Below are positions 4,537 through 60,903 of a stretch of DNA of 64,000 nt, piece by piece (position 1 is the stretch's first letter; each line of letters starts with the position of its first letter). The notes under the pieces were generated by a model, which was not told where the DNA came from, searched no databases, and saw nothing but the letters and a program-made list of their open reading frames with translations. The stretch is from Candidatus Nealsonbacteria bacterium (GTDB taxonomy: Bacteria > Patescibacteriota > Minisyncoccia > Minisyncoccales > MHMH01). The stretch is taken from the NCBI GenBank assembly GCA_016181965.1, contig JACOYH010000007.1, positions 7,110 through 71,109 on the forward strand. The letters are read 5' to 3'. The position numbers and the translations under genes were made by a program.

Positions 4537-4561
4537 GTGTTAGACATTGAATGTCTAACAC
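4537..4561. repeat. Palindrome family P3, copy 1 (GTGTTAGACAT tga ATGTCTAACAC)
   Basis: Perfect 11-bp arms with a 3-nt centre, 13 nt upstream of the GerMN ATG. The same arms recur at 58705..58729. Confidence 0.85.
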
Positions 4562-4645: not shown

Positions 4646-4698
4646 CTTTACCGAGGACTGTCCTTGCCAGATTCTGGCAAGGACAGTCCTCGGTAAAG
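4646..4698. repeat. 53-nt perfect hairpin/palindrome (25-bp arms, 3-nt loop) just after the AlkD-like gene stop
   Basis: ctttaccgaggactgtccttgccag att ctggcaaggacagtcctcggtaaag. No U-tract follows on the minus strand. Confidence 0.85.
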
Positions 4699-7588: not shown

Positions 7589-8627
7589 GTTCTTTAACAA
7601 CATCGTTCCAAGTATAATTCATGGGGATTTTCTTTATTTTCTCAACATAATCCGCGTAATTTTTCTCATCCAAAAGATATAAAATCTTTCTCTCTAAATC
7701 AGCCCCGTCTCTCGGATCTATTAAAATCAAACTATTTCCAACGGTATCCAGGCCGGTTTCTTTAGTCAGCAAAACTGGCTTTCCCATGGCCAGACATTCC
7801 AAAGCAAAATTGGGGGTAATTTCGGTGAGCGAGGGCAGTACGCAAATATAACTTCTGCCCATCTCTGCCATTAATTCTTGATGTGGCAGAGGAGACGCAA
7901 AAGTTACCTTGTCATATTTTATTAGATTTGTTTTTTCCGGCCCTTCGCCGATTATTTTGAGCGTTAACGGTTTGTCTGTTTTTGACAAGACATTATAGAA
8001 TACTTTGATTAAAAATTCCAGGTTCTTCAGTTTCAAAAGCCGCCCCGCGTATAGAATCTTGTAGTTTTCTGGCGTCGTTTGCAAAGGCGCTTCTTTGGCC
8101 TCGGGAAAGGGATTTTTTATGATGACTGTTTTCTCTGGCCTAAAGCCGTAATGTTTAAAATATATTTGCCGCTGAAAATCGCTTGTAAAAATTATTTTGT
8201 CGGTACTCTTGAGGATTTTTCCGATAATAAACATCGTTAACCTTTCTCGCAACGTTTTTACGGAACTCTCGTAGTATTCCCGTAAAGTTTGTTCGATTCT
8301 GCCTTGCTCCACCGCTCTTTCCCACAAAAAGTCGCCGCCGAGCCGTATGAAAAATCGTTTTCTCAAGATTTTACCGCAAAAGCAGGCGGGTATGCCGCAG
8401 CTTATGGCATTAAAAGCATAAATGGCATCCGCCCCCAAAGACGCTTTCAGGAGATTAGCGACATAGCAGGCAATTCTTAATGGCTGAGGAATTTTTCTAA
8501 GGTTGCCGTAAGAAACAACGGTTGTAGAAATTCCCCTGCCCTCAAATCCTTGCTTGAGTTTTTGGGCATATGTTGCCGGGCCCCCAATATCTGGCGGGTA
8601 AATTGGCGTGGCTAAAACAATTTTCAT
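7557..8627 (-). CDS. glycosyltransferase family 1 (GT4-type)
   Basis: MKIVLATPIYPPDIGGPATY... and VLPSLTEITPNFALECLAMGKPVLL. Confidence 0.8.
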   Translation of the reverse strand: MKIVLATPIYPPDIGGPATYAQKLKQGFEGRGISTTVVSYGNLRKIPQPLRIACYVANLLKASLGADAIYAFNAISCGIPACFCGKILRKRFFIRLGGDFLWERAVEQGRIEQTLREYYESSVKTLRERLTMFIIGKILKSTDKIIFTSDFQRQIYFKHYGFRPEKTVIIKNPFPEAKEAPLQTTPENYKILYAGRLLKLKNLEFLIKVFYNVLSKTDKPLTLKIIGEGPEKTNLIKYDKVTFASPLPHQELMAEMGRSYICVLPSLTEITPNFALECLAMGKPVLLTKETGLDTVGNSLILIDPRDGADLERKILYLLDEKNYADYVEKIKKIPMNYTWNDVVKEHEKSFISWSN

Positions 8628-9709
8628 CTTTTTACTTTTTGATAAATATCATATACCCTATTGGCGATATTTTGCCAGTTATATTTTGGCAAGACATTTT
8701 TTGCATTTTCAACCAGCATTTTGGCAAAATCAGGGTTGGATTGAATCTTGAATAAGGCCTCGCTAATTTGGCCAACATTGCCCGGCTCAACCAAAAGGCC
8801 GGTTTTCTGGTCTTCAATCAAGTCCAAAATACCTCCTACCCCGCTGGCAACAACCGGCAAGCCAGCGGCCTGCGCTTCCAAAACAACAATGCCAAAACCC
8901 TCTTGAATAGAGGGCAGAACAAAACAGTCGGCCATTGCCAAGTAAAAAGGAATTTTTTCATTGGGAATTTCTCCGAGAAATTCCACGCTATCTTCTGATT
9001 TTAATTGTTTAACTAAATTCTCAAGGTCCTTTCGCCTACTACCATCGCCGATAACCATTAACTCACTTGGTTGACACCTGGTGTCAACCAACGCTCTTAT
9101 TAAATATTCCACTCCCTTGACTTTTTCTAATCGGGCCACCGTAATGACAATAAACTTCTCGCGGGGCTGTCTCTTGATGTTTTCAAATCTCGATAGGTCC
9201 ACTCCGTTGGGAATAACTGCAACCTTTTTTACACCTATGTCTTCAAAATTTTTCTTGACGGCCGAAGAAGCGGCAATACAAAAAGCGGCTTTTCTGTAAA
9301 TAAAATTTTTCAAAGGATTTCTTTTCTTTTCGAGCCGTTGAACGGTAGTAATATAGGGAACTCTTGTTACGACAGAGAGGCAAAAACCCAGAAAGCTGCT
9401 TAGAAAACCTTGGCAGTGTAAAATATCAATTTTCTCTTGCCGCATTAAAATTAATGATTTCAGGAAAATACAGGGCAATAGGGAAACGGTATAGATTTTA
9501 GGGGAACGCGACAAATCAGATAAGGTAAAAAACGAAGTCCGGAAAATGCGCAATCCGCCTGCGGCCTCCTTGTTGGGCCGATTCTTTACCCTGCCTGTCA
9601 CCACGAAAACCTCGGCTTTTTTGGAAACATTCTCGGCAATATTGCGGGTCCATGTCTCAATGCCTCCAACAACCGGATAATAATGAAGCGCCGGCATCAA
9701 TATTTTCAT
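8624..9709 (-). CDS. glycosyltransferase family 1 (GT4-type)
   Basis: MKILMPALHYYPVVGGIETW... and VLPSIQEGFGIVVLEAQAAGLPVVASGVGG. Carries palindrome P2 copy 1. Confidence 0.85.
   Translation of the reverse strand: MKILMPALHYYPVVGGIETWTRNIAENVSKKAEVFVVTGRVKNRPNKEAAGGLRIFRTSFFTLSDLSRSPKIYTVSLLPCIFLKSLILMRQEKIDILHCQGFLSSFLGFCLSVVTRVPYITTVQRLEKKRNPLKNFIYRKAAFCIAASSAVKKNFEDIGVKKVAVIPNGVDLSRFENIKRQPREKFIVITVARLEKVKGVEYLIRALVDTRCQPSELMVIGDGSRRKDLENLVKQLKSEDSVEFLGEIPNEKIPFYLAMADCFVLPSIQEGFGIVVLEAQAAGLPVVASGVGGILDLIEDQKTGLLVEPGNVGQISEALFKIQSNPDFAKMLVENAKNVLPKYNWQNIANRVYDIYQKVKR
9067..9091. repeat. Palindrome family P2, copy 1, in-frame inside a GT4 gene
   Basis: TTGGTTGACACC t GGTGTCAACCAA, 12-bp perfect arms, encoding VDTRCQPS on the minus strand. 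Confidence 0.85.
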
Positions 9710-15278: not shown

Positions 15279-16439
15279 ATGAAGGAAAAAACAAACCAAA
15301 TTTCTAATGGGGTGAAAAGGGTCTTATTTTTGGTTACTCAATCGGAAATGGGGGGCGCCCAGAGGTATATTTTTGAGTTGGCGCGCGGTCTGGATAAGCA
15401 AAAATACGAAATTTCAGTTGCCGCCGGCGAAGGAGACGGAGAATTATTTGAAAGGATTGCGCCCCTGCAAGTCAAAACGCACCAACTAATAAATCTTAAA
15501 CGCGCGCCAAATCCCTATCTCCTTATTGCTGCGGTCGTGGAGATAAGGAGATTGCTTAAAAAAGAAAAGCCGGATGTCTTGTTTCTGTGCTCCACCACGG
15601 CCGGATTGCTCGGCTCTATCGCAGCTATTTTCTTGCCCGCAAAAGTAGTATACAGAATTGGCGGCTGGGCATTCAGGGATCCGCGGACTTTTTGGAAGAA
15701 TTGGCTGATTTTGCTCGCAGAGAAGATGACTGCTCCCCTTAAAGATAGAATCATTGTCAATTCGGAAATTGATCGTAATTTAGCTATAAAATACAAAATT
15801 GCTCCGCCGGGGAAAATAATCAAAATCTATAACGGCATTGACCCGGATTCTTTAAACTTTTTAAGCCAACAAGAAGCCCGGAACCGGTTGACACCAGGTG
15901 TCAACCAAGGTGTCAACCAAGTCGTGGTTGGAACGGTGGCAAATTTTTATAAAACCAAGGGATTAGAATATTTAATCGAGGGCTTCGCGAGGTCCGACCT
16001 CGCCAAAGGCGGGTCAAATCTCATTATCATCGGCGAGGGGCGAGAACGGCCGAAACTGGAAACCTTAATTAAAAAACATAAGATAGAGGATAAAGTCATT
16101 TTAGCTGGACGTCTGCCTGACGCTTACAAATACTTGAAGGCCTTTGATGTTTTCGCGCTTCCCTCCCTAAAAGAGGGCTTTCCTTGGATAATTCTAGAGG
16201 CAATGGCCGCTGAAGCGCCGATTGTCGCTACTAAAGTCGGCGCTCTGCCAGAGATCATTGATGACGCTAAAGAAGGATTTTTAGTAGAGCCGAAAAATAG
16301 CAAGGCCTTGGCTGAAAAAATAAAATGGGCGTTAGAACATCAGCAAGAAGCCAAAGAGATGACCGCTCGAGCCAAAATAAAAGTTCTCGCTCGATTTTCT
16401 CTCTCTAAAATGATTGAGGCCACTCAAAATGAACTCTAA
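15279..16439 (+). CDS. glycosyltransferase family 1 (GT4-type)
   Basis: ALPSLKEGFPWIILEAMAAEAPIVATKVGALPEI. Transcribed divergently from the 5538-15140 operon. Carries palindrome P2 copy 2. Confidence 0.85.
   Translation: MKEKTNQISNGVKRVLFLVTQSEMGGAQRYIFELARGLDKQKYEISVAAGEGDGELFERIAPLQVKTHQLINLKRAPNPYLLIAAVVEIRRLLKKEKPDVLFLCSTTAGLLGSIAAIFLPAKVVYRIGGWAFRDPRTFWKNWLILLAEKMTAPLKDRIIVNSEIDRNLAIKYKIAPPGKIIKIYNGIDPDSLNFLSQQEARNRLTPGVNQGVNQVVVGTVANFYKTKGLEYLIEGFARSDLAKGGSNLIIIGEGRERPKLETLIKKHKIEDKVILAGRLPDAYKYLKAFDVFALPSLKEGFPWIILEAMAAEAPIVATKVGALPEIIDDAKEGFLVEPKNSKALAEKIKWALEHQQEAKEMTARAKIKVLARFSLSKMIEATQNEL
15886..15920. repeat. Palindrome family P2, copy 2, with a tandem duplication of one arm, in-frame inside a GT4 gene
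   Basis: GGTTGACACC a GGTGTCAACC aa GGTGTCAACCAA, encoding PGVNQGVNQ. Confidence 0.85.
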
Positions 16440-20042: not shown

Positions 20043-20885
20043 TTAAAAGAATGATTCGAGCCAAAAAGTGAAGATTGAAAAAGCGCTAAAAATGCTGGCT
20101 TGGCTAGCGGCAATTTGCTCTTGCAAAACCTGAATTAATTGATTTAGAAGATCCAATAGCTGAAGTTGGAGGGTTTCTATTTTGTCCCGCAGATCAACGA
20201 CCTCTTCGCCCTCGCCCTCGACCTCCGCAGGAGGCTGAACCTCTTCGGGCGCCGCCAAAGTTCTCACTGCTTCAAAATTTGATAAAACAGTAGTCAAACT
20301 GGTGCCTCTATCGTTGAAAGCCACCGCCAGCCGGCCGGAGTATTCAGTATCTGGCTGGAGACCGGTTTCATCAATATAAGAAACATTTGCTTGTTCGGTT
20401 CGCGCCACTACCCTTAAGTTGCCGTCCAGAATCTTAAAACCGAATTCATTATTGGACTGGTCTTGAAAATGCCAACGAAGAGTTGTTGAGGAAATCGCCT
20501 CCGGAGTTCTGGCCTGCAAACTGGCGATATTTTTAATATCTGCGGTAACAAAAATTCTTCCGCTAAAATTTCCGGAAATCGCTGTATCAAAAAATGGCGG
20601 ACTCAAAACCCGGGCGACTTCGGTCTCATCGCCATTCCAATCTGCGGAAGAGCCATCTTGCCAAAATGTCAATTCTGAAATAACAGTGTGGTCGGCTGTA
20701 CCGGCATTACTCAAAATGATTGACTGTTTGGGCGCAGATAGAGTCAGGTCTAAGACCAAAACCCGTGAGGTATTATAGGGAATATCGTAAGTAGATTGAG
20801 GATTTACCTTAAAGTCCTCGGCCACAGAAGCCGTGGCTATGGTCGGCAGAAAGATAAAAAATAAAAGCAAAAAAATTCTTCTCAT
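20043..20885 (-). CDS. secreted protein with an FN3-like domain, acidic linker, C-terminal coiled coil and hydrophobic tail
   Basis: Signal peptide MRRIFLLLFFIFLPTIATA; ...LRWHFQDQSNNEFGFKI...LQPDTEYSGRLAVAF...; LRDKIETLQLQLLDLLNQLIQVLQEQIAASQ. Confidence 0.6.
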   Translation of the reverse strand: MRRIFLLLFFIFLPTIATASVAEDFKVNPQSTYDIPYNTSRVLVLDLTLSAPKQSIILSNAGTADHTVISELTFWQDGSSADWNGDETEVARVLSPPFFDTAISGNFSGRIFVTADIKNIASLQARTPEAISSTTLRWHFQDQSNNEFGFKILDGNLRVVARTEQANVSYIDETGLQPDTEYSGRLAVAFNDRGTSLTTVLSNFEAVRTLAAPEEVQPPAEVEGEGEEVVDLRDKIETLQLQLLDLLNQLIQVLQEQIAASQASIFSAFSIFTFWLESFF

Positions 20886-20953
20886 TATTTTATTATACCA
20901 TTATGTCAGCATGATGTCAGGATGTCCGGCACCCCTCAATTCTGTACTTGTTA

Positions 20954-21007
20954 GGTCTGTTAGAGCCAGGCTCTAACAAGCTTGTTAGAGCCTGGCTCTA
21001 ACAGACC
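20954..21007. repeat. 54-bp perfect palindrome centred on ACAAGCTTGT
   Basis: ggtctgttagagccaggctctaacaag|cttgttagagcctggctctaacagacc. An extra taacagacc copy follows at 21011-21023. Confidence 0.9.
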
Positions 21008-21026
21008 TGCTAACAGACCTAACAGA

Positions 21027-26204: not shown

Positions 26205-26276
26205 ATCGGATATCGATTGTCTATTATAGTTATGACGGAAAAGAAGATATTTTGTTACACCAATATCCAGCCATCG

Positions 26277-26330
26277 TTTGTGATAGGCCGGGCTTATCAC
26301 AAGCTTGTGATAAGCCCGGCCTATCACAAA
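26277..26330. repeat. 54-bp perfect palindrome centred on ACAAGCTTGT, between the sigma and anti-sigma genes
   Basis: tttgtgataggccgggcttatcacaag|cttgtgataagcccggcctatcacaaa. Confidence 0.9.
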
Positions 26331-26349
26331 CAAACCGCTTATTACAAAC

Positions 26350-27884: not shown

Positions 27885-28445
27885 ATGAGAAAAATAATTA
27901 TTCTCTTGGTTGTTTTAGGCCTCGCCGGCGCGGGCTTTTTTTATTGGTGGAACAATCAAGCAGATGTCAGGGAACTGAATAAAACCCTGCCCACAGGCGT
28001 AAGAATAGAAAAAAGCTTATTCGGCAATGAATATAAAGTAGTGAATAAGATTGATGGCTACTCGTTTAAAGTACCGCCAGAGTGGGAGGGGTTGGAGGAA
28101 GTTGAGTATATACCGGAAAGAGAAGAGTTAGGGTATGTAGGAAGTAGTCTGAATTTTAATGGCAAGGAGAAAGGCATCATAGGCGTTGCTATCGATCGCT
28201 TCACTGCCGGCGGGGATATGAGTATGGATTTAGAATCTTGGACGAAATTAGAGTTTGATGCCTTTGAATTAGTAGGAGATTTTAGTAAAGATAAGATTGG
28301 GACATTAGATATAGTAAAGACACAAGAGAACGTCCACTTCGCGGGTGAATATATATATTATCTAAAAAAAGACCAAATTATATACTCTCTCACGAGTCCT
28401 GCAAAAGGGTATATTGAATACATTATCACTAATGGACAATGGTAA
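27885..28445 (+). CDS. membrane-anchored hypothetical protein
   Basis: MRKIIILLVVLGLAGAGFFYWW anchor. 7-nt overlap with the downstream giant gene. Confidence 0.55.
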   Translation: MRKIIILLVVLGLAGAGFFYWWNNQADVRELNKTLPTGVRIEKSLFGNEYKVVNKIDGYSFKVPPEWEGLEEVEYIPEREELGYVGSSLNFNGKEKGIIGVAIDRFTAGGDMSMDLESWTKLEFDAFELVGDFSKDKIGTLDIVKTQENVHFAGEYIYYLKKDQIIYSLTSPAKGYIEYIITNGQW

Positions 28446-31400
28446 AAGCCATAAAATCTATAGGGGGTAAACTATCTTTGCAAAAGACGATTTTAACGAT
28501 TGCCATAGCCGCAATCGTTTTTTCTTTCTTGTCCAATTATTCTTTGGCCGGCCAAACAAAAGTCAACCAGCAAGAAATGCAAAGAATCAAACAGGGCTTG
28601 GATATTGTTAAAACAGCTTCAAGTTTCGGAAGCGTTCTTCTTGACGATGGCGGCTTAATGAAAGCGCTCAACACGGTTATCAAGGGCGGCAGCGCGGCCA
28701 CGGATGTCACCTACGGCCTGCTTGTCTTGAGCGCCGTCAACGAAATGGAACTAATGGATTTGGTGCTTTCGCAGGAGTATAAAACAATAGAAAGAGAATA
28801 TTTTGAACAAATTTTAGACGAGAGGACCAATTTAATATCTTATTGGAGAGGAGTTGGTTTTGACTTGCCCAAAGTGCTCTCTGGACAGATTACCGGCCCC
28901 ATGGCTGGCTTAACTTTAAACAGCTTTGCTATGACCAACAAAATTATCCATATTGCCACCGCGTTTGAAGTGTTAAAAAAAGGCCAACTGTATGATGGCC
29001 TATGGTATTACTTTGATTTAAGAAAAAATAGCAATGAGCCGCATGAAATAGCTTGGCGCGAAGCAAAAATGATACTTGGTTTTGCGACTAATTCAGTGGG
29101 ATTTCACGGACCAACACAAAGACAGAATAAAAGAATCGAGCTCGAAGCTCAATTCACATCCCTTTGGGATAAATGGGGGCTATACGCCACGCCAGGAGGC
29201 ATCAGTAATCAGTATCAAGAACAAGCAAAAGAGGAAATGAGAAGCATGCTGGCCGTGGCAGCTGAAACGCAAAGGTTAGCTGAAATAGAAAAACAAAAAG
29301 AACCATCTTGGCTATCAAAACAAATAGATGAACTCAAAACACTCGCGTCAGGCCTTGGAGAAAAAATTCACACTATGGTCTCCAAGATCGCCGACGCCAA
29401 TCCCTTTAGCGCCGGCCCAATTGTCCAATCGCCAAAAGATACACCGGTGGCACCGGTGCGAAATTCGGCCGGGCTTCAGAGCCCCAAAAACCGAGAATCA
29501 GAAGACCAAACCCCGACAGAAAGAGGCGAAGAAGCCCGGCTTCCTCGGGAAGCCGGGCTTCAGGTTCCACGAGAGGTCCCACGAGAGGTCAAACCTCAAG
29601 CGCCTCAAGAGATTGAAAGTGAAAAGACAACAGAGGAGAAAGTGAAAGATAAAGAGGTCCGAGAAGAGGAAAAAATTAAAATAGTCGAGATCAAACCCAC
29701 GCCAGATGAGCCGGGACTTTGCGAGAAAATTGCCGGGGACTTGCCTAAAAGATATAGGGCTTTCATTAACGAGGTGGCCTGGATGGGCAGTCAAAATTCG
29801 CCAAATGACGAATGGATTGAGCTGAAAAATATTTGGGGCTTACCCGTCAATCTTAACGGCTGGCAATTACAAGACAAAGACCAGCAAATAAAAATAATTT
29901 TTGAAGAAAATGATACTATTCCGGCCAGCGGATATTATCTTTTAGAAAGGACAAATGATGACTCAACGCCCAAAGCCAAGGCCGACAAAATATACACGGG
30001 CGCTTTAGGCAATAACAATGAGGCCTTATATTTATTTGATAATGACTGCCGATTGGAAGACGAAGTTATAGCCGATCCCAGTTGGCCAGGCGGCGACAAT
30101 ACCGCTAAAAAAACAATAGAACGGCTGGATCCCTTATACTGGTACACAAGCGCTTCTATAGGGGGCAGCGCCGGAAAAAACAACGGCACGCCTCCGGCAA
30201 TTTTAAAGCACCCCAGCGCGCCAACTCCCCCTTTGCCTGCTTCAGCGCCGACTTATCTTACAATTTTGATTGACGAAGTCAGAATTGATGGCGATGGAAA
30301 TATCAAAAACGATTCCGTTAAACTCTACAATCCCAACGATACGGCGGTTGATTTAACAAATTGGTATTTGCAAAGGAAAACAGCGAACTCTTCCGTATTC
30401 TCAACTTACGCGCCAAAATCGCTTTTTGCCGGAAAATCCATTGAGGCAAACGGATACTTTTTAATTGCTCACGCTTCTTCAACGTTCGCTACTTCCGCAG
30501 ACGCCATCACAACTTACTCTCTGACTCGAAATAATACCCTCGTCTTAAAAAATCCAAATGGTGAAATAGCGGACACGGCGGAGCCAGCAGAAAATAACGA
30601 AGAAACGGCGTCGTTATCGGTTGTTATCAACGAAATCGCTTGGGCAGGCGCTAAGGCCAATTCTGCCGATGAGTGGATTGAACTTTACAACAACACTACT
30701 TCAGGTATTGATTTGACTAATTGGTCAATTTTGAAAGATGACGAGGAATGGATTATCTTTTCCACCTCAAGCATCGTCTCGCAGGGATATTATTTATTGG
30801 AAAGAAGCGACGATCAGACAATCAGCGATATTACGGCCGACCAATTTTTTACCGGCGCTCTAAGCAACAGCGGCCAAAAATTAGAATTAAAAAATGCAGC
30901 CGGTGACTTAATGGACTTAATTGATTTTTCTTCTAATTGGCCAGCCGGCGAAGCCGCCCCAAACTATCTTTCAATGGAAAGGATATCTTCTACTTTCAGC
31001 GATTGGGCTAGCAATAATCGAATCTCAACAAACGGCTTGGGTAGCGGCAATAATGCCATCAACGGCACGCCGAAAGAAAAAAATAGCGTTTCGAAGTCCT
31101 TCACAGAAGTTGTCGGCGATCGCGTATTTTCAGACGACTTTACGCTTACAAAACTTGGCAGTCCTTATATTTGGGAGGGCTCCCTTATCATGGAGCAGGG
31201 GACTAAATTAACCGTCGAACCCGGCGTTACCGTAAAATTCAAGCACACTGCCCCTAACCAGCCCCACGCTCAAGTAAAAATAAAAGGCGAGATGGAGGCC
31301 ATTGGAACAAACGAGCAAGAAATAACTTTTACGTCTTTTCAGGAAAATAATTATTGGGACGGGCTTTATTTTGAGAATTCAAATTCTACTCTTGAAAATG

Positions 31401-32446
31401 TCATCATCGATTATGCCGGCAAATGGCACCATAGCGGCGCAAACGAGTTTCCCCCCTATACTTACGGGGCGATATACATAGATGGCGGAACGGTCAGCAT
31501 AAAAAACTCTCTAATTCAAAACAGCGAAACCTTCGGGGTATGGCTGAAAAATTCTCCCTTAAGCTTGATAGACGGGACGACCTTTAAGGCAAATCCTGGC
31601 ACCGTAGAAAAGCCGGCGGCGATTTATGTTGAACAGGGCAATCCGACCATTCAAAATTCTAATTTTGAAGATAATAACATTGGGATTTTCGCTGCGAATT
31701 ACTCAACGCCCGCAATCACCGACAACAGTTTTAACGGCAACCAAGCGCCCGTGAAAATAAGCTCGCTTTTTACAGACATTTCCGACAACATCGCGCAGAA
31801 CAATGATATCAACGGAATTTTACTTGAAGCTTTTGGTTTTAATGGAGAAACCAGCGAAGTCGCGTGGCAAAAAAACGATTTGCCCTATGTTGTTGAGAGC
31901 GCCCTTGATGTTGCCGCTGGAAAAATACTAGAAATAGAATCGGGCGTCGTCGTGAAGTTCAAGGGAGAAGGGGCAATAAATATAGGCGGTACGCTAAATG
32001 CGAAAGGTAAAAATAATGATAAAATAATTTTTACTTCTATCAGCGATGACGAATACGGGGGCGACACAAATAACGACGGCAATGCGTTTCCGCCCGCAGC
32101 CGGGCAATGGAAATTTCTTAAGTTCTTGAACTCCAGCGCGGAGGCATCTTTAGACAATGTTCTCGTGAGATACGGAGGATTTCTCGGAATAAGAGGCGGC
32201 GTTAGTGCGCGCGATGGGGCAATTAAGATTGAGAACAATACGCTCACCATCAAGGATTCTATTATTGAAAACAATCGGGTGGGGATTGAAATGATTAATT
32301 CTGATTTTGACGGGAAAAGCAAAAATATTTCCGTTAGGAATAATGCCATAGGAGTATACGTTGAGGGCGCCTGCCCAAATCTAAACGATATTATTTTCGA
32401 ACAGAATACGGAATACGATATTTTTCCAATTGACTGCCAAAACTAA
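28439..32446 (+). CDS. 1335-aa secreted protein: N-terminal helical region, P/E-rich linker, three lamin-tail (LTD) domains, C-terminal right-handed beta-helix repeats
   Basis: LTD signatures INEVAWMGSQNSPNDEWIELKN, LIDEVRIDG...VKLYNPN and INEIAWAGAKANSADEWIELYNN. The C-terminus has repeated ..I.NS.I.NN..GI.. units. Confidence 0.75.
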   Translation: MVKAIKSIGGKLSLQKTILTIAIAAIVFSFLSNYSLAGQTKVNQQEMQRIKQGLDIVKTASSFGSVLLDDGGLMKALNTVIKGGSAATDVTYGLLVLSAVNEMELMDLVLSQEYKTIEREYFEQILDERTNLISYWRGVGFDLPKVLSGQITGPMAGLTLNSFAMTNKIIHIATAFEVLKKGQLYDGLWYYFDLRKNSNEPHEIAWREAKMILGFATNSVGFHGPTQRQNKRIELEAQFTSLWDKWGLYATPGGISNQYQEQAKEEMRSMLAVAAETQRLAEIEKQKEPSWLSKQIDELKTLASGLGEKIHTMVSKIADANPFSAGPIVQSPKDTPVAPVRNSAGLQSPKNRESEDQTPTERGEEARLPREAGLQVPREVPREVKPQAPQEIESEKTTEEKVKDKEVREEEKIKIVEIKPTPDEPGLCEKIAGDLPKRYRAFINEVAWMGSQNSPNDEWIELKNIWGLPVNLNGWQLQDKDQQIKIIFEENDTIPASGYYLLERTNDDSTPKAKADKIYTGALGNNNEALYLFDNDCRLEDEVIADPSWPGGDNTAKKTIERLDPLYWYTSASIGGSAGKNNGTPPAILKHPSAPTPPLPASAPTYLTILIDEVRIDGDGNIKNDSVKLYNPNDTAVDLTNWYLQRKTANSSVFSTYAPKSLFAGKSIEANGYFLIAHASSTFATSADAITTYSLTRNNTLVLKNPNGEIADTAEPAENNEETASLSVVINEIAWAGAKANSADEWIELYNNTTSGIDLTNWSILKDDEEWIIFSTSSIVSQGYYLLERSDDQTISDITADQFFTGALSNSGQKLELKNAAGDLMDLIDFSSNWPAGEAAPNYLSMERISSTFSDWASNNRISTNGLGSGNNAINGTPKEKNSVSKSFTEVVGDRVFSDDFTLTKLGSPYIWEGSLIMEQGTKLTVEPGVTVKFKHTAPNQPHAQVKIKGEMEAIGTNEQEITFTSFQENNYWDGLYFENSNSTLENVIIDYAGKWHHSGANEFPPYTYGAIYIDGGTVSIKNSLIQNSETFGVWLKNSPLSLIDGTTFKANPGTVEKPAAIYVEQGNPTIQNSNFEDNNIGIFAANYSTPAITDNSFNGNQAPVKISSLFTDISDNIAQNNDINGILLEAFGFNGETSEVAWQKNDLPYVVESALDVAAGKILEIESGVVVKFKGEGAINIGGTLNAKGKNNDKIIFTSISDDEYGGDTNNDGNAFPPAAGQWKFLKFLNSSAEASLDNVLVRYGGFLGIRGGVSARDGAIKIENNTLTIKDSIIENNRVGIEMINSDFDGKSKNISVRNNAIGVYVEGACPNLNDIIFEQNTEYDIFPIDCQN
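29531..29561. repeat. Palindrome family P1, copy B, in-frame in the linker of the LTD protein
   Basis: GAAGCCCGGCTTCC tcg GGAAGCCGGGCTTC, 14-bp perfect arms, encoding EARLPREAGL. Confidence 0.9.
29565..29588 (+). repeat. 12-nt tandem duplication (VPRE VPRE) immediately 3' of P1 copy B
   Basis: ttccacgagagg tcccacgagagg. Confidence 0.85.
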
Positions 32447-35932: not shown

Positions 35933-35958
35933 ACTACTATACTACATAGTATAGTAGT
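35933..35958. promoter_or_regulatory. 26-bp AT-rich palindrome, site 1 of 3 (candidate operator)
   Basis: ACTACTATACTA ca TAGTATAGTAGT, 103 nt upstream of the clpB ATG and 60 nt after the NDT-like gene stop. Confidence 0.6.
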
Positions 35959-36504: not shown

Positions 36505-36530
36505 ACTACTATACTACATAGTATAGTAGC
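36505..36530. promoter_or_regulatory. 26-bp palindrome, site 2 of 3
   Basis: ACTACTATACTA ca TAGTATAGTAGc, 1 nt after the regulator's stop codon and 74 nt upstream of the NDT-like ATG. Confidence 0.6.
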
Positions 36531-37022: not shown

Positions 37023-37054
37023 AACACTACTATACTATATAGTATAGTAGTGTT
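37023..37054. promoter_or_regulatory. palindrome site 3 of 3, here a perfect 32-bp palindrome abutting the regulator's -10 box
   Basis: aacACTACTATACTA ta TAGTATAGTAGTgtt. On the minus strand a TATAAT (37023-37018) follows directly, 15 nt before the ATG at 37002. Confidence 0.65.
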
Positions 37055-55320: not shown

Positions 55321-55920
55321 TTAAAGGAAAAATAGCGCGGACCAGAATAAGAGGGCGAGGATAAATGACATGATAACAGGAGCTGCATAGCTCTGAAATT
55401 GCCTCGTGGCTAGCCTTGTAAAGGAAAAAAGCGTCGCCACTATGGCCATAACGAACAGGAAAATCTGCAACACGCCATTTACTGGGCCATAATCCCGCAC
55501 GGTCACATCGCGACCGGTCAGCCGGACGAGATAGGTCCTGACCTTTGCTTTTCGGTCGCGAGCGAACCAGCCGGTGGCGTCCCAGTACCCGTTCACTGCC
55601 AGCACAAGTTCATCGGGCAGAACGACCGTGGTCGCCAGCTCATAGAACTTGAGGTAGTCGTCGGCATTTGACTTGGCTTGGCCAAAATCCTCAATGCCCT
55701 TCTGCAGTTCGCGCATTTCTTTGCCGTCGACAATTTGGTCAGCGGCTACTTGCCCTGCCGTTGCCAAAACCGCGTCTCTCTTTTCGGCCAACAGCCGTTC
55801 TTTTTCGGCCAAAACCTGCTGACCAGCTTTTTTGAAGTTGGCCTCCTCGTCGGCTATGGCCGAACCCGCTGCTCCCAACAGCAACAACCCCGCGACAACC
55901 GCCACCAGTGCCTTTTTCAT
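55321..55920 (-). CDS. secreted/membrane protein of unknown family, paralogue 1 (G+C-rich)
   Basis: Signal peptide, soluble domain (EKRDAVLATAGQVAADQIV..KEMREL...FARDRKAKVRTYLV) and two C-terminal TM helices ending LFFL. GGGAGG SD. About 45-50% identical to 58050-58646. Confidence 0.7.
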   Translation of the reverse strand: MKKALVAVVAGLLLLGAAGSAIADEEANFKKAGQQVLAEKERLLAEKRDAVLATAGQVAADQIVDGKEMRELQKGIEDFGQAKSNADDYLKFYELATTVVLPDELVLAVNGYWDATGWFARDRKAKVRTYLVRLTGRDVTVRDYGPVNGVLQIFLFVMAIVATLFSFTRLATRQFQSYAAPVIMSFILALLFWSALFFL

Positions 55921-55986: not shown

Positions 55987-57987
55987 ATGGAAAAGTCAAC
56001 CCTAGACCGGGTTTTAATCGTTGGCATCACCCCCTACTTCTTGGAAAGGGAGAATTTTTGGTTTGAAGAAAACCTGCAAAAGATATTAACGGCGAGAAAA
56101 ACCCAGTCGTTCTTTGAAGATAATATTGTTTTTTTAGAAAAGGGCAGTGATTTCAATTTTTCGCGGCTGCTCCGGCAACTTGACGAAATGGGCTATGAAA
56201 TAGTGCAAGAAGTCGCGGAACCCGGCGAAATAGCAAGGCATGGCGGCACGATTGACATTTTTCCGGTCAACTTAAATCGGGCCGTTAGAATTAATTACTT
56301 CGGCAACAAGATTGAAGAAATAGAACAATCAAATACTTGTGTTAGCGATGAAAAAAAAGACAAAGAACGGCTGAAGAAAAAACTAAAGAATCAAAAAATA
56401 TATTCCCAATTGCAAGGCCTAAAGCCGGGCGATTTTTTGGTGCACCTAGACCACGGCATCGGGCTCTTGACGGGGATAACTGGAAGTCCGGCTTCCGCGG
56501 GAAGCCGGACTTCCTCGTTTCCGTTTCCGCAGAAATATTACGTTTTAGAATATGCCTCGGGCGATAAATTATATGTGCCGCTGGGCCTTGAGAGAAAACT
56601 TTCGCGCTATGTCGGCTTTATTAATCCTAAAATTTCCCGGTTGAGCGCGCCGACTTGGTTGAATACGAAAAGGAAAGTCAAAGAGGAAACCGAAAAGTTA
56701 GCCGCAGAGCTTCTGGAAATATACGCTCAACGAGAAGTGGCTCGGCGCCAGCCCTACAGCCGCGATTTTGAAATGGAAGCGAAAATTCAAGAGACGTTTG
56801 CCTATCTTGAAACACCCGATCAGGCGCAGGCAACAAATGACATTGCCAAGGACCTTGAAGAGTCGGAAATGCCTATGGACAGGATTGTCTGCGGGGACGT
56901 TGGTTTTGGCAAAACAGAAATCGCCCTAAGGGCTGTCATTAAGGCGGTAAGCAACGGCAAGCAGGCGGCCATGATTTGCCCCACCACTATTTTGGCTTCA
57001 CAGCACTATCAAAACTTCACCCACCGGCTGAACAATCTGCCAGTCAAAATCGCGCTGATAAGCCGCCTGCAATCTAAAAGCGAACAAAAAACAATTGCCG
57101 GACAATTAAAGGCGGGGGAAATAGACATTGCCATTGGCACTCACCGGCTGCTTTCTGCCGATATTGCATTTAAGAATTTGGGCATGCTCGTTATCGACGA
57201 CGAGCAGAAATTCGGCGTGGAGCAAAAAGAGCGTCTCAAAAGAATCCGGCCGCAGTTAGATATTCTCTCGCTGTCGGCTACGCCCATTCCCCGCACTCTT
57301 TATTTTGCTCTCTCATCGCTAAAGAATATCAGTATTGTTAAAACGCCTCCGCCGGAACGGTTGCCTGTTGAGACCTTTATCAAACCACGCTCGGAAAAAA
57401 TTATCCGGCGGGCAATTGAGGCGGAAATCACCAGAGGAGGCCAGGTTTATTATTTGCACAACCGAGTTGCCACCATTGAAATGGTTAAAAAATCTTTGGC
57501 GGAAAAATTCCCCCATCTGAATGTTGGCGTTGTTCACGGCAGAATGAATGAACCGGAAATGGTGTCGGTCATGCGCGATTTCAAAGAAAAAAATATTGAT
57601 GTGCTCGTAGCCACCACTATTATTGAAAACGGCATAGACCTCTCCAACGCCAATACTTTGGTTGTGGCCGATGCCGCCAAACTCGGCTTGGCGCAGGCGC
57701 ACCAAATCAGGGGCAGAGTGGGTCGCTCAAATGTTCGGGCCTTTGCCTATTTTCTGCATTCGGGCAAATTAAACGATTTAGCAAAAAGGCGCCTGCAAGC
57801 GCTCAAAGAGGCGCAAAATCTTGGGTCGGGCTATAAAGTCGCCCTGCAAGATATGGAAATACGAGGGGCAGGCAATATTCTCGGCAAAGAACAATCGGGC
57901 AGTGTCAATCAAGTGGGTCTGAATTTGTACTGTCAGATGTTAAGCGAAGTGATTGAAAAACTGAAAACTGCCAAACCTGCCCCGTAA
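55987..57987 (+). CDS. mfd: transcription-repair coupling factor Mfd, shortened (666 aa)
   Basis: UvrB_inter-like N-terminus (GEIARHGGTIDIFP), CarD_TRCF/RID (LKPGDFLVHLDHGIG...YVLEYASGDKLYVPL), and SF2 motifs GDVGFGKTE, DDEQKFG, SATPIPRTL. No visible D2 or D7 regions. Confidence 0.85.
   Translation: MEKSTLDRVLIVGITPYFLERENFWFEENLQKILTARKTQSFFEDNIVFLEKGSDFNFSRLLRQLDEMGYEIVQEVAEPGEIARHGGTIDIFPVNLNRAVRINYFGNKIEEIEQSNTCVSDEKKDKERLKKKLKNQKIYSQLQGLKPGDFLVHLDHGIGLLTGITGSPASAGSRTSSFPFPQKYYVLEYASGDKLYVPLGLERKLSRYVGFINPKISRLSAPTWLNTKRKVKEETEKLAAELLEIYAQREVARRQPYSRDFEMEAKIQETFAYLETPDQAQATNDIAKDLEESEMPMDRIVCGDVGFGKTEIALRAVIKAVSNGKQAAMICPTTILASQHYQNFTHRLNNLPVKIALISRLQSKSEQKTIAGQLKAGEIDIAIGTHRLLSADIAFKNLGMLVIDDEQKFGVEQKERLKRIRPQLDILSLSATPIPRTLYFALSSLKNISIVKTPPPERLPVETFIKPRSEKIIRRAIEAEITRGGQVYYLHNRVATIEMVKKSLAEKFPHLNVGVVHGRMNEPEMVSVMRDFKEKNIDVLVATTIIENGIDLSNANTLVVADAAKLGLAQAHQIRGRVGRSNVRAFAYFLHSGKLNDLAKRRLQALKEAQNLGSGYKVALQDMEIRGAGNILGKEQSGSVNQVGLNLYCQMLSEVIEKLKTAKPAP
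56482..56514. repeat. Palindrome family P1, copy C, exactly 11 codons inside the Mfd RID domain
   Basis: GGAAGTCCGGCTTCC gcg GGAAGCCGGACTTCC, 15-bp perfect arms. Starts at a codon boundary and encodes GSPASAGSRTS. Confidence 0.9.
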
Positions 57988-58019
57988 AAAACCGAAGGTT
58001 TTTGTACGGGGTGCTCTAG

Positions 58020-58045
58020 AAAAAGTTGAGGACAATGTCCTCAAC
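58020..58045 (-). terminator. Rho-independent terminator of paralogue 2
   Basis: Minus-strand guugaggac auu guccucaac followed by U5. Confidence 0.65.
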
Positions 58046-58049
58046 TATA

Positions 58050-58646
58050 TTAAAGGAAAAATAGCCAGCGCCAAAGAAAGACAGCGGATAAACCAGACGC
58101 AATGAAAGACGCAAACACCGCTATATTTCTCTTGCCCATAAGGAAGAGAGCGTCAAAGAACGCAACGAAACAGGAACTAGCGAGTAGAGCCATAAGCGCG
58201 GCAAGGAATTGCCACAGGCCCAATATAATAGAATCCTGCACAATGATGTCATGTCCTGCGAGTCCGACGAGATAAGTCCTGACTTTTGCGCTTCTGTCGC
58301 GGGCAAAAAAACTATTAGAAACCCAGTACTCATCTACCGCTTGCGTAAGCTCTGCCGGCAAAACAACTGTGGTCGTTAGGCCGTAGGATGTTAAATAGTA
58401 ATCGGCCTCGGACTTGGCCCGGCTAAAACTTTCAATGCCCCTTATAAGTTCCCGCATTTCCTTGCTGGTGACAATCTGGTCGGCGGCAACTTGCCCCGTG
58501 GTTGCCAAGACCGCATCTCTCTTTTCGATCAGTATGCGCTCTTCTTCAATTAGCTTCTTCTGGCCTGCTTTATCATCAGCCGTGGCCATATCAGTTGTGC
58601 CCAGCAGCAATAGTGCCGCGAAAATCGCCAATATCGCTCTTTTCAT
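58050..58646 (-). CDS. secreted/membrane protein of unknown family, paralogue 2
   Basis: ATG at 58646 (MKRAILAIFAALLLLG...) preceded by GGGAGG. EKRDAVLATTGQVAADQIV..KEMREL...FARDRSAKVRTYLV; ends LFFL. The longer ORF-track start at 58793 reads through repeats. Confidence 0.7.
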   Translation of the reverse strand: MKRAILAIFAALLLLGTTDMATADDKAGQKKLIEEERILIEKRDAVLATTGQVAADQIVTSKEMRELIRGIESFSRAKSEADYYLTSYGLTTTVVLPAELTQAVDEYWVSNSFFARDRSAKVRTYLVGLAGHDIIVQDSIILGLWQFLAALMALLASSCFVAFFDALFLMGKRNIAVFASFIASGLSAVFLWRWLFFL

Positions 58647-58704
58647 TTCTGCCTCCCTCGCTGTTTTGCTTATAGCACAAAACACGAAACAATAAAAAAG
58701 CCAT

Positions 58705-58729
58705 GTGTTAGACATCGGATGTCTAACAC
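58705..58729. repeat. Palindrome family P3, copy 2
   Basis: GTGTTAGACAT cgg ATGTCTAACAC, 59 nt upstream of the paralogue-2 ATG. Confidence 0.85.
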
Positions 58730-58752
58730 CTTGACCGATGAACGGCGATATG

Positions 58753-58792
58753 TTGTCTGTGCAGGTTTGTCTGTGCAGGTTTAACCTGCACA
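58753..58792. repeat. 14-nt tandem duplication whose second copy forms a 21-nt palindrome
   Basis: ttgtctgtgcaggt ttgtctgtgcaggt tta acctgcaca. The palindrome TGTGCAGGT tta ACCTGCACA lies at 58772-58792. Confidence 0.85.
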
Positions 58793-58826
58793 AGCCGAAA
58801 ACGGAGTAGAATGCATCATCCCTGCG

Positions 58827-58884: not shown

Positions 58885-60903
58885 ATGAAACTCATTATCG
58901 TTGAGTCGCCGACAAAAAGCAAAACCCTGCAATCGTTTTTGGGAAAAGACTACAAAGTGCTTTCTTCTTTTGGCCACGTAAGAGACCTTCCCAAGGGCTC
59001 TCTTGGCGTTGATTTGGAAAATAATTTTAAGCCAAAATACGTCATTCCCACAAAATCAAGAAAAACTGTGACCGCCCTGAAGAAAGAACTGCCAAAAAGC
59101 GATTCGGTTGTTTTAGCGACTGATGAGGACAGAGAGGGCGAGGCCATTGCTTGGCATTTGGCGCAGGCGCTTGATTTAAGCGGGCAAAAAAAATACGAGA
59201 GAATCGCTTTTCATGAAATTACAAAGCCGGCGATATTGGAAGCGCTGAAAAACCCCCGCGAAATAGACATGAATTTAGTCAACGCCCAGCAGGCGAGACG
59301 GGTGCTCGACAGAATTGTCGGCTATAAACTTTCGCCTTTTTTATGGAAAAAAATCGCCCGCGGCCTGTCGGCCGGCAGAGTTCAGTCGATAGCCGTTCGG
59401 CTGGTGGTAGAGAGAGAAAGGGAAATCAAAAAGTTTCAATCTCAAGAATATTGGAGCATTATTGCCCTTCTTATTGCCGAGGACAGTCCTCGGCAATTTG
59501 AAACAATATTATACAAAAAAAATGGCGAGGCCATAGATAAGCTGGCGATAAAAAATACCGAAGAAGCAGAAGCAATAATCAGCGAGTTAAGGGGGGCGGA
59601 ATACAAAGTCGAAAATATTGAAAAAAAGGAAAGTCGCAGAAATCCCCTGCCCCCTTTCACTACCTCAACTCTCCAGCAAGATGCTTGGCGCAAATTTAAA
59701 TTTCCGGCCAAGTTCACTATGCGCATCGCTCAAAATCTTTACGAAAGAGGATTTATCACTTACCACCGCACCGACTCTTTGAATCTTTCCGGTTTAGCCC
59801 TGGGAGCGGCGAAGGAATTGATTACTGAAAGATATGGCCAAAATTACCATCAGTTCAGAAAATACAAAAGCAAAGGCAGGGCGCAAGAAGCGCATGAAGC
59901 CATCAGGCCGACCAACGCCGACAGACCTCCCAAAAACCTTGACGAAAACCAACGCCGCCTTTATGAGCTAATCTGGCAAAGATTTATCGCCTGCCAAATG
60001 GCCCCGGCTGTTTTTGACGCTGTGGCCATTGATATCGCGGCTCAAAATTATACCTTCAGGGCCAACGGCCAAACATTAAAATTCGACGGCTTCTTAAAAG
60101 CATACCCCATTAAATACGAAGAAACAGATTTGCCTCTTTTAGAAAAAGAAGAGATTTTGGAATTAAAAAAACTCGTAACCTCTCAGCACTTTACCCAGCC
60201 GCCTGCCCGATACACCGAAGCCACGCTGATCAAGGCCCTGGAAGCAGAGGGCATTGGCAGGCCCTCAACTTACGCCCCAACGCTCTCTACTATTCAAGAC
60301 AGGAATTATATTGAAAAAAATGAAAAACGCTATTTCCAGCCGACCGAAATCGGCACGGTGGTCAACGACCTTTTGGTTGAACATTTCCCTCAAATTGTCG
60401 ACATAAAATTTACGGCCAATATGGAGGATGCCTTGGACAAAATTGCCGAAGGCGAAGCCGAGTGGACGAAAATCATCGGAGAATTTTACGGGCCCTTCGC
60501 GGAAAATCTTGAAAAAAAATACGAGGAGGTTTCCAAAAAGGACTTCACCGAAAAACCCACCGGCAAAACGTGCCCCAAGTGCGGCTCTCCCCTAATAATG
60601 CGGCTGGGAAAATTCGGCCAATTCTATGCCTGCTCTAAATTCCCCGACTGCAAATACACCGAGTCACTGCCGCAAAAAAATCTGAATGTTAAATGTCCGA
60701 AATGCCTTGAGGGCGATTTGGTGGAAAAAAGAACCAAGCGCAAAAAAATATTTTACGGCTGTAATCGCTTCCCCAAGTGCGATTTTGCTTTGTGGGACAA
60801 ACCAACTGGCGAAAAATGCCAAAAGTGCGGCTCTCTATTGGTAGAGAAACAAAAAAAGATAAAATGCTCAAATAAGGAGTGCGACTACCAGAAAGACAAA
60901 TAA
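58885..60903 (+). CDS. topA: DNA topoisomerase I (type IA) with C-terminal zinc ribbons
   Basis: Toprim MKLIIVESPTKSKTL..ATDEDREGEAIAWH; active-site region ITYHRTDS; three C4 ribbons (CPKCGSPL...CSKFPDC and others). Confidence 0.95.
   Translation: MKLIIVESPTKSKTLQSFLGKDYKVLSSFGHVRDLPKGSLGVDLENNFKPKYVIPTKSRKTVTALKKELPKSDSVVLATDEDREGEAIAWHLAQALDLSGQKKYERIAFHEITKPAILEALKNPREIDMNLVNAQQARRVLDRIVGYKLSPFLWKKIARGLSAGRVQSIAVRLVVEREREIKKFQSQEYWSIIALLIAEDSPRQFETILYKKNGEAIDKLAIKNTEEAEAIISELRGAEYKVENIEKKESRRNPLPPFTTSTLQQDAWRKFKFPAKFTMRIAQNLYERGFITYHRTDSLNLSGLALGAAKELITERYGQNYHQFRKYKSKGRAQEAHEAIRPTNADRPPKNLDENQRRLYELIWQRFIACQMAPAVFDAVAIDIAAQNYTFRANGQTLKFDGFLKAYPIKYEETDLPLLEKEEILELKKLVTSQHFTQPPARYTEATLIKALEAEGIGRPSTYAPTLSTIQDRNYIEKNEKRYFQPTEIGTVVNDLLVEHFPQIVDIKFTANMEDALDKIAEGEAEWTKIIGEFYGPFAENLEKKYEEVSKKDFTEKPTGKTCPKCGSPLIMRLGKFGQFYACSKFPDCKYTESLPQKNLNVKCPKCLEGDLVEKRTKRKKIFYGCNRFPKCDFALWDKPTGEKCQKCGSLLVEKQKKIKCSNKECDYQKDK
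59473..59497. repeat. 25-nt perfect palindrome in-frame inside topA
   Basis: ATTGCCGAGGAC a GTCCTCGGCAAT, encoding IAEDSPRQ. Shares aggacagtcctcgg with the 53-nt hairpin at 4646-4698. Confidence 0.85.

Follow-up and report, generated by a model that had tools for sequence, protein, structure and literature searches.

In-frame palindromic repeats in Nealsonbacteria: a hairpin element in a loop of Mfd and its copies in other genes

The presence of a 33-nt inverted repeat, in frame, within the mfd gene of a Candidatus Nealsonbacteria genome raises the question of how such a sequence comes to be inserted in, and retained by, a protein-coding gene. The repeat, referred to here as P1 copy C, is located in a 64,000-nt stretch of DNA (the window: GenBank assembly GCA_016181965.1, contig JACOYH010000007.1, positions 7,110 to 71,109 of the forward strand). 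It occupies a loop of the RNA polymerase (RNAP)-interacting domain (RID) of Mfd, is absent from the closest homologue, and belongs to a family of related elements found in frame within other genes, with arms that vary together. P1 is probably one copy of a family of miniature palindromic repeats that is specific to the Nealsonbacteria, a group of tiny, uncultured bacteria, and resides in frame in the loops of essential proteins.

The inverted repeat and the loop that carries it

The host gene, the domain, the repeat, and the codons that follow it are:

55987-57987, plus strand: mfd, encoding a short-form Mfd (TRCF) of 666 amino acids (aa), with the Pfam domains UvrB_inter, CarD_TRCF_RID, DEAD, and Helicase_C
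56419-56613, plus strand: the RID (Pfam CarD_TRCF_RID, PF02559), residues 145-209
56482-56514, plus strand: P1 copy C, an inverted repeat GGAAGTCCGGCTTCC-GCG-GGAAGCCGGACTTCC, with arms of 15 nt and a centre of 3 nt
56515-56529, plus strand: five more codons (S-FP-FP), TCG followed by a tandem duplication (TTTCCG, twice), directly after the palindrome and missing from the closest homologue

The two arms of copy C are complementary at 15 of 15 positions (100%), and an earlier reading made from the sequence alone (the sequence-only reading) had described the element as a 33-nt perfect palindrome. The perfect arms stand, whereas the GCG centre is not self-complementary, so that the element is strictly a 15/3/15 inverted repeat. 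The 13-nt unit of which it is built is present twice, in inverted orientation, as GAAGTCCGGCTTC and GAAGCCGGACTTC. As that reading also held, the repeat begins with the first base of codon 166 (position 56482) and fills exactly 11 codons (residues 166-176 in the open reading frame, ORF, 55987-57987), encoding the peptide GSPASAGSRTS between HLDHGIGLLTGIT and SFPFPQKYYVLEYASGDKLYVPL.

Amplified metagenomic DNA can yield inverted chimeras, but an origin of copy C as an artefact of assembly or amplification, or as a chance hairpin, is hardly credible. A Logan assembly of the mfd locus, possibly from the same sample as the window, is identical base for base through the palindrome, the reading frame is unbroken, and related elements recur in numerous independent assemblies (ENA, JGI, NCBI, and Logan). 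None of 100 shuffles of the window matched the hairpin, and perfect hairpins with stems of 10 nt or more number 23 in the window, against approximately 0.55 expected. As RNA, copy C folds with an energy of -35.4 kcal/mol (z = -6.5), and as DNA with one of -21.1 kcal/mol (z = -7.2).

The host protein is 100% identical to a "DEAD/DEAH box helicase" of a Candidatus Nealsonbacteria metagenome-assembled genome, and the region from its RID to motif I matches solved Mfd structures with E-values of 1e-26 to 6e-33. Its RNAP-interacting domain is that of Mfd/TRCF, a Tudor-like CarD_TRCF_RID domain followed by a superfamily 2 (SF2) translocase. The protein is one of a large set of short Mfd proteins from the Nealsonbacteria (approximately 646-710 aa among the 120 homologues listed), and the listed homologues match only UvrB_inter, the RID, and the two helicase domains, with no match beyond Helicase_C to a C-terminal domain of the kind that is autoinhibitory in the Mfd of E. 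coli.

The closest Mfd homologue (P0002, 75% identity), which is the sister of the window protein in a rough neighbour-joining tree, reads HLDHGIAYFAGL-ENKYY at this site and has no insert. In comparison with this homologue, the window Mfd has 16 extra codons, that is, the 11 of the palindrome and the five of TCG and the duplicated TTTCCG. Between the motifs HLDHG[IV]G and YY.LEYA, the alignment of the 120 homologues shows a hypervariable segment of 8 to 34 residues, and in the characterised Mfds of E. coli and the mycobacteria this segment is 8 residues shorter than in the window, close to the difference of roughly 10 residues that the sequence-only reading had given. An AlphaFold2 model of the window Mfd (mean predicted local distance difference test score, pLDDT, of 66.6) places residues 167-182 in a coil between strands 157-166 and 183-188, with a pLDDT below 50 at residues 168-180. 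These observations agree with the earlier proposal of an insertion into a surface loop. The claim that the insertion splits the RID was overstated: the element does lie within the domain, and the model supports the view that it would lengthen the tip of a beta-hairpin of the Tudor-like fold.

Related palindromes in other genes and lineages

Two further copies of P1 and three single units are found in the window:

6070-6102, minus strand: P1 copy A, AGAGGCCCGGCTTCC GCG GGAAGCCGGGCTTCT on the coding strand, in the interdomain linker of a GT4 glycosyltransferase gene (5538-6584), encoding EARLPREAGL
29530-29562, plus strand: P1 copy B, AGAAGCCCGGCTTCC TCG GGAAGCCGGGCTTCA, in a low-complexity linker of a gene for an LTD/beta-helix protein of 1335 aa (28439-32446), also encoding EARLPREAGL
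29585-29597, plus strand: a single, partly decayed unit, GAGGTCAAACCTC, 24 nt downstream of copy B, after a 12-nt tandem duplication (VPRE VPRE)
15989-16001, plus strand: a single perfect unit, GAGGTCCGACCTC, within a GT4 gene (15279-16439)
20231-20243, minus strand: a single unit-like sequence, GAGGTTCAGCCTC on the coding strand, within the ORF 20043-20885

Copies A and B, which lie in unrelated genes, have in common a 29-nt core, GAAGCCCGGCTTCC-NNN-GGAAGCCGGGCTTC. Copy C differs from this core by one compensated pair, a C-to-T change at arm position 6 and a G-to-A change in its pairing partner, as the sequence-only reading had noticed.

The Mfd-locus DNA of eight relatives was compared with that of the window, and most of these relatives carry a palindrome at the same loop of the RID:

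L084: a 56-nt perfect palindrome, AATTGAAGGAAGTCCGACTTCCCTCAA-ca-TTGAGGGAAGTCGGACTTCCTTCAATT
L085: GAGGTCGAACCTCCC-c-GGGAGGTTCGACCTC
L090: GAGGTCGGACCTCC-caa-GGAGGTCCGACCTC, with a G-C pair in place of an A-T pair of L085
L087: arms as in L085, with a longer loop (14 nt)
L088: the arms of L085 flipped, with approximately 56 nt of nested hairpins in between
L089: a 36-nt imperfect hairpin, which forms a clean 12-aa insertion, TIN/PEGKPSASYGAG/NQQ, in one Mfd clade
L086: no palindrome

At the peptide level, one or other of four recognisable insert types is present in 25 of the 120 Mfd homologues. The earlier proposal would have failed if the extra residues were ancestral to this Mfd clade and were not encoded by palindromes in the relatives; instead, the relatives either lack these residues or encode them by palindromes.

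Doublets are also present in other genes of these lineages, and a further palindrome in topA of the window:

TopA of L085: a doublet encoding EVRLQRKEVGL
TopA of L090: a doublet of the A/B type of the window, encoding EARLRRNEAGL
TsaD of L090: a doublet forming a 12-aa insert relative to L089
DegT of L093: a doublet forming a 9-aa insert relative to L092
59473-59497 of the window: a 12/1/12 palindrome, ATTGCCGAGGAC-a-GTCCTCGGCAAT, in topA (58885-60903), in the loop after QEYWSI

The TopA loop is occupied by four different palindromes in as many lineages: that of the window, the unit doublets of L085 and L090, and, in L084, a nested palindrome with the same outer arms as in the window. Degenerate palindromes of the GAGGT type (EVRPPxEVGPR) occupy the glycosyltransferase linker of copy A in many relatives.

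The component common to the Mfd-loop and P1 arms described here is a 13-nt unit, GARGYYNRRCYTC, which is itself palindromic. The doublet consists of two inverted copies of this unit, 1-16 nt apart, or further where another sequence is nested between them. In 171 kb of Nealsonbacteria DNA (the window and the contigs L084-L093), there are 32 occurrences of the unit, against 0.8 expected under a first-order Markov model, an enrichment of approximately 40-fold. A single occurrence was found in 1.37 Mb of unrelated bacterial Mfd loci, almost all of them distant Mfd genes recovered by a scan of genome contigs with the Mfd alignment (universal helicase motifs), and no doublets were found in scans of IMG/VR. 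All 32 fall within called genes or long ORFs, and each of the three codon phases is represented. In its 64 kb, the window contains three doublets as well as three single units. The contigs L090 and L093 derive from one genome (GCA_016188865.1), with doublets of the GAGGTC type in mfd, tsaD, and degT, and of the GAAGCC type in topA, so that this genome has at least four doublets in 43 kb.

The variation of the arms was analysed in an alignment of 11 elements, which represent five genes and were drawn from six sources (the window, L084, L085, L087, L090, and L093, the last two being one genome). Pairing is retained in 95% of the cells of the long hairpin, and seven of the 14 inner stem pairs have changed on both sides, in 23 cells, in a small sample whose rows are not independent. 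Neither the observed cell count nor the covariation score was reached in any of 500 shuffles, and controls with a slid register gave at most three pairs with changes on both sides. At their centres, the two units pair with each other in every element (eight C-G and three G-C). The mismatches amount to two G-U and one C-A in the 11 elements, with two further C-A in a decayed glycosyltransferase copy, and show no bias towards G-U on the sense strand. In L085, L087, and P1 copy C, the small hairpins internal to the units are broken or wobbled while the long hairpin is still perfect, which indicates that the maintained feature is the inverted repeat as a whole.

The peptide is not retained in the same manner. 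The reading frame of copies A and B is not that of copy C, and they encode EARLPREAGL rather than GSPASAGSRTS, which, together with the covariation, bears out the suggestion of the sequence-only reading that the hairpin is conserved rather than the peptide. The extra residues may nevertheless have been selected as protein, as a lineage-specific extension of the RID hairpin that tunes the binding of RNAP, with the palindromic coding being incidental. The position of the insert is suggestive in this respect, given that E. coli L499 aligns immediately before it (in a HMMER alignment that is approximate in the loop), and the L499R substitution abolishes the interaction of the RID of E. coli Mfd with RNAP beta1 (PMC3001067). 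The loop is also variable across the clade. However, the same DNA element gives unrelated peptides in other frames, insert sequences are not conserved in this loop of 8 to 34 residues, and the confidence of the model falls below 50 at the residues of the insert. Given the three frames with different peptides, the hypervariable loop, and the low model confidence, selection on the peptide is very improbable.

A second alternative is that selection acts on the hairpin itself, as a functional element in the mRNA or DNA of the host, such as a translational pause between folding units, a determinant of RNase action or stability, a partial internal terminator, or a binding site for a protein that regulates mfd and the other host genes. 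The covariation of the arms, the persistence of palindromes at the same loop in several lineages, and the high stability of the hairpins would all be expected of such an element, and one marginal terminator-like pattern is found at 56499-56515, followed by CGTTTCCGTT. This alternative is, however, hard to reconcile with the absence of the hairpin from the closest Mfd homologue and many others, the presence of the same element in unrelated genes, and the variety of palindromes at the Mfd site, which are of several sequence types, some related and one unrelated. There is, in addition, no real U-tract, and the mismatches lack the sense-strand G-U bias described above. Since the hairpin is absent from the closest relative, present in unrelated genes, and devoid of a U-tract and of a match in Rfam, gene-specific regulation is improbable, although somewhat less so than selection on the peptide.

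Two specific assignments were rejected. An intrinsic terminator was discarded on the basis of the ORF-internal position of the hairpin, its single marginal pattern, and a count of terminator-like patterns equal to the shuffled expectation. No known RNA family was recognised, with no Rfam 15 match at or above the gathering score.

Mobile repeat or template switching

The preferred interpretation is that the P1 family represents a selfish or near-neutral palindromic repeat, acting at the level of the DNA and of the kind of the repeats known as REPINs and RPEs (see below), which is tolerated in permissive loops; this is the more probable account, on balance. The insertions relative to orthologues are consistent with it, that is, the insertion in Mfd relative to the closest homologue, the 12 aa in TsaD, the 9 aa in DegT, and the 12 aa in Mfd of the L089 type. 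By direct reading, none of the six frames of P1 contains a stop codon, and the copies observed are in-frame multiples of three, which means that the elements are translated as short peptides rich in Gly/Ser/Pro/Arg/Thr or Glu/Ala/Arg/Leu. Being translated, they would persist only where the protein tolerates extra residues, in loops and linkers. The elements would spread between loci via a single-stranded hairpin intermediate, possibly copied by a Y1/HUH transposase similar to the REP-associated tyrosine transposases (RAYTs), and the arms would be kept complementary either because the hairpin is the substrate of copying or through mutual correction by intrastrand template switching. Under this scheme, the elements would be mobile, and neutral for the function of Mfd.

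The principal rival is that the palindromes are written in place. Template switching, either within a strand or at the replication fork, perfects quasi-palindromes and makes local inverted duplications, in which case the "compensatory" changes would be single mutational events that require neither selection nor transposition. Quasipalindrome-templated mutation of this kind is known from E. coli and phage T4. It resembles the present case in that clustered substitutions turn one arm into the exact complement of the other, as at a further site in the window:

8964-8984, minus strand: a perfect 10/1/10 palindrome, GGAATTTCTC-c-GAGAAATTCC, in a GT4 gene (8624-9709), encoding V-E-F-L-G-E-I-P

This palindrome covers the conserved segment V-x-F-x-G-x-I-P without an indel relative to the orthologues of L092 and L093; its right arm is conserved in the relatives, and the left arm alone differs, at several clustered bases. 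It arose, then, by substitutions alone, so that template switching has to be taken seriously, as a rival or as a contributor. In the DegT doublet, the left arm corresponds to codons of the host gene (LKSNFPS in L092), leaving the loop and the right arm as the extra sequence, which indicates that palindromes can be made in place. The outer arms of the TopA palindromes (ATTGCC.../...GGCAAT) extend into neighbouring codons, for example the IA of the W[ST]IIA motif, in both the window and L084. Palindromes are nested within palindromes in Mfd and TopA of L084 and in Mfd of L088, the stems are strictly Watson-Crick, and tandem duplications abut P1 copies B and C and the TopA palindrome of L084, which suggests replication errors induced by the hairpins.

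Template switching leaves unexplained the identical 29-nt core of copies A and B in two unrelated genes, the occurrence of several copies of its own variant in each genome, and the enrichment of one 13-nt unit across the clade. It differs from a repeat family in being a mutational mechanism rather than an element, and would not, alone, spread one sequence to many loci. It is likely to be a contributor, through the maintenance of the arms and the growth of the palindromes, as well as the principal rival; as the entire explanation of the family, it is rather unlikely, while being far more plausible than either regulation by the hairpin or selection on the peptide.

A number of observations also weigh against a mobile repeat. 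The substitutions at 8964-8984 and the host codons in the left arm of the DegT doublet are two of these. No homologue of Y1_Tnp was found in the window by tblastn, and no transposase is linked to the P1 family. Neither a target-site duplication nor a shared target is visible at copies A, B, and C. The Mfd loop, the TopA loop, and the glycosyltransferase linker are occupied in lineages that are only 60-80% identical, and long vertical persistence accounts for these occupied orthologous sites no less well than repeated insertion does. An exact-pattern scan of JGI metagenomes for the P1 core (AGCCCGGCTTCC-NNN-GGAAGCCGGGCT) recovered no further Nealsonbacteria contig, and the clade sample covers only approximately 170 kb. 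The three JGI contigs that do match the core (L081-L083, with 41-63% GC) are unrelated and carry it as an intergenic hairpin, at least in L082 with a clear terminator-like T-tail. Terminator hairpins are so numerous that chance alone should occasionally produce any given 12-nt arm, and as the JGI matches are unrelated, intergenic, and terminator-like, the exact form of P1 is not widespread.

Candidate transposases adjoin mfd in two relatives. RAYT-like Y1_Tnp proteins of 234-237 aa are encoded there, and their sole NCBIfam match is the model of the REP-associated tyrosine transposase, at 35.8 bits (L086) and 17.4 bits (L090), against a cut-off of 80. Each gene is bracketed by copies of its own palindrome doublets:

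L090, 12033-12815: a RAYT-like Y1_Tnp gene, which also contains a third copy of its own palindrome, AATCTTACGAGGC-ttc-GCCTCGTAAGATT, in frame
L086, 992-1860: a RAYT-like Y1_Tnp gene, with a flanking palindrome that contains the unit-like sequence GAAGTCAGACTT

The palindromes around these genes differ in sequence from the unit family, which also counts against mobility by this route.

A more far-reaching version of the mobile-repeat interpretation, which is possible although somewhat doubtful, is that the Nealsonbacteria, and perhaps other members of the Candidate Phyla Radiation (CPR), harbour an intragenic analogue of the REPINs. These would be replicators of 31-56 nt in essential genes, reoccupying permissive loops and keeping their arms perfect over long divergence, made or maintained by a hairpin-dependent process, either an HUH transposase or rampant template switching, that generates diversity of loop length in Mfd, TopA, and TsaD.

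Known repeat families and the remainder of the window

Palindromic elements located in frame inside genes are known from Rickettsia (the Rickettsia palindromic elements, RPEs; PMC10969869). The RPEs are similarly found in unrelated housekeeping genes, are translated at positions compatible with the protein fold, and occur in a host-dependent lineage with a reduced genome (PMC10969869). The P1 family resembles them in its in-frame, translated insertion, and lacks their size of approximately 100-150 bp and the conserved peptide specific to each family. Its elements are, by contrast, 31-56 nt in length, form perfect or near-perfect hairpins of a 13-nt unit, are read in three frames, and belong to the phylum Patescibacteria/CPR, in a comparison made by description rather than by sequence.

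Repetitive extragenic palindromes (REPs) are extragenic by definition, have a unit of 20-40 nt with a conserved 5' GTAG, and flank their cognate RAYT. The REPINs of the gamma-proteobacteria consist of two inverted copies of a short palindromic unit, which form one long hairpin, with genome-specific variants. Repeats of the REP/REPIN type number in the tens to hundreds per genome; the P1 counts to set beside this are those given above for 64 kb of the window and 43 kb of GCA_016188865.1. The P1 family has the same inverted doublet of a palindromic unit, folding as a long hairpin, with variants per genome, persistence at orthologous sites, and compensated changes in the stem, and RAYT-like Y1 genes flanked by palindrome doublets are present in relatives. 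Its copies are, unlike REPs, all intragenic, each of the 32 units being contained in a called gene or a long ORF, and no transposase could be recognised as cognate to them. A RAYT flanked by the same repeats was not found in the window, L086, or L090, and the GTAG-type tetranucleotide is absent, the flanks of copies A, B, and C (ttca/gcga/aact) having no common motif.

The small dispersed repeats (SDRs) of cyanobacteria, reportedly described by Elhai et al. in 2008, are said to be hairpins of 21-27 nt with compensatory mutations and nested insertions, which were proposed as the smallest mobile elements. The P1 family is likewise composed of very small, dispersed hairpin repeats with compensatory mutations and nested insertions; the SDRs reportedly belong to other sequence families and another phylum, and they are not known for a doublet architecture or for occupying the loops of essential proteins systematically and in frame. 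Assignment to the MITEs (miniature transposable elements with inverted repeats) was rejected, as there are no direct repeats around copies A, B, and C, and the whole element is the hairpin. The RPEs are the closest functional analogue, being translated in frame, and the REPINs are the closest in architecture; the P1 family fails the defining features of both. Full-text searches of the open-access literature recovered nothing relevant on in-frame palindromes in the CPR/Patescibacteria, and the family is apparently undescribed.

Other palindromes and neighbouring genes in the window have sequences or locations of their own. Two 56-nt perfect palindromes (28/0/28), at 20953-21008 and 26276-26331, are doublets of smaller palindromic units (TGTTAGAGCC-w-GGCTCTAACA and TGTGATAGGCC-GGGCTTATCACA), the former intergenic and the latter at the extreme 5' end of a DUF5667 ORF; their architecture is REPIN-like and their sequences are unrelated to P1. 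The positions 9067-9091 and 15886-15906 have a common palindrome, (TT)GGTTGACACC-w-GGTGTCAACC(AA), inside two different GT4 glycosyltransferase genes, and the copy at 9067 lies in a variable loop with indels relative to the relatives. Three copies of an AT-rich palindrome family, ACTACTATACTA...TAGTATAGTAGT, are found in spacers between small genes (35933-35958, 36506-36529, and 37023-37054).

Intergenic palindromes are located at 4646-4698, at 4537-4561 and 58705-58729, at 58024-58046, and at 58772-58792, one of them being 26/1/26. The palindrome GTGTTAGACATY-g-RATGTCTAACAC has two intergenic occurrences, approximately 54 kb apart, and two intergenic palindromes lie between mfd, the membrane-protein gene, and topA. 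The Logan assembly (L091) and the window differ by a 17-nt insertion, CCGCCGCCATTGAAAAA, near 58017, downstream of mfd and upstream of the 58024 palindrome, with no other difference across 8.5 kb. Two paralogous small membrane proteins (55321-55920 and 58050-58646, both on the minus strand), with no Pfam match, bracket mfd and have in common the segment ...KRDAVLAT.GQVAADQIV..KEMREL... The ORF 58050-58793, between mfd and topA, was considered as a transposase and rejected, as it has no Pfam match and is a paralogue of the other membrane protein flanking mfd.

If confirmed genome-wide, the P1 family would be among the smallest dispersed repeat elements known, and would represent the second clear case, after the RPEs of Rickettsia, of housekeeping genes whose reading frames have been colonised by palindromic repeats, in this instance in the CPR, where the biology of mobile elements is almost unexplored. 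The beta-hairpin of the Mfd RID, beside the RNAP-contact position equivalent to E. coli L499, tolerates from 0 to 26 extra residues, and many lineage-specific insertions in the proteins of the CPR could have this same origin. Peptides such as EARLPREAGL, GSPTS...GSRTS, and GRTSPGGSTS would then provide a simple sequence signature by which these insertions may be flagged in annotation and structure modelling. Co-evolution of the arms at dozens of orthologous sites would also offer a natural system in which selection on the hairpin may be separated from mutation by template switching.

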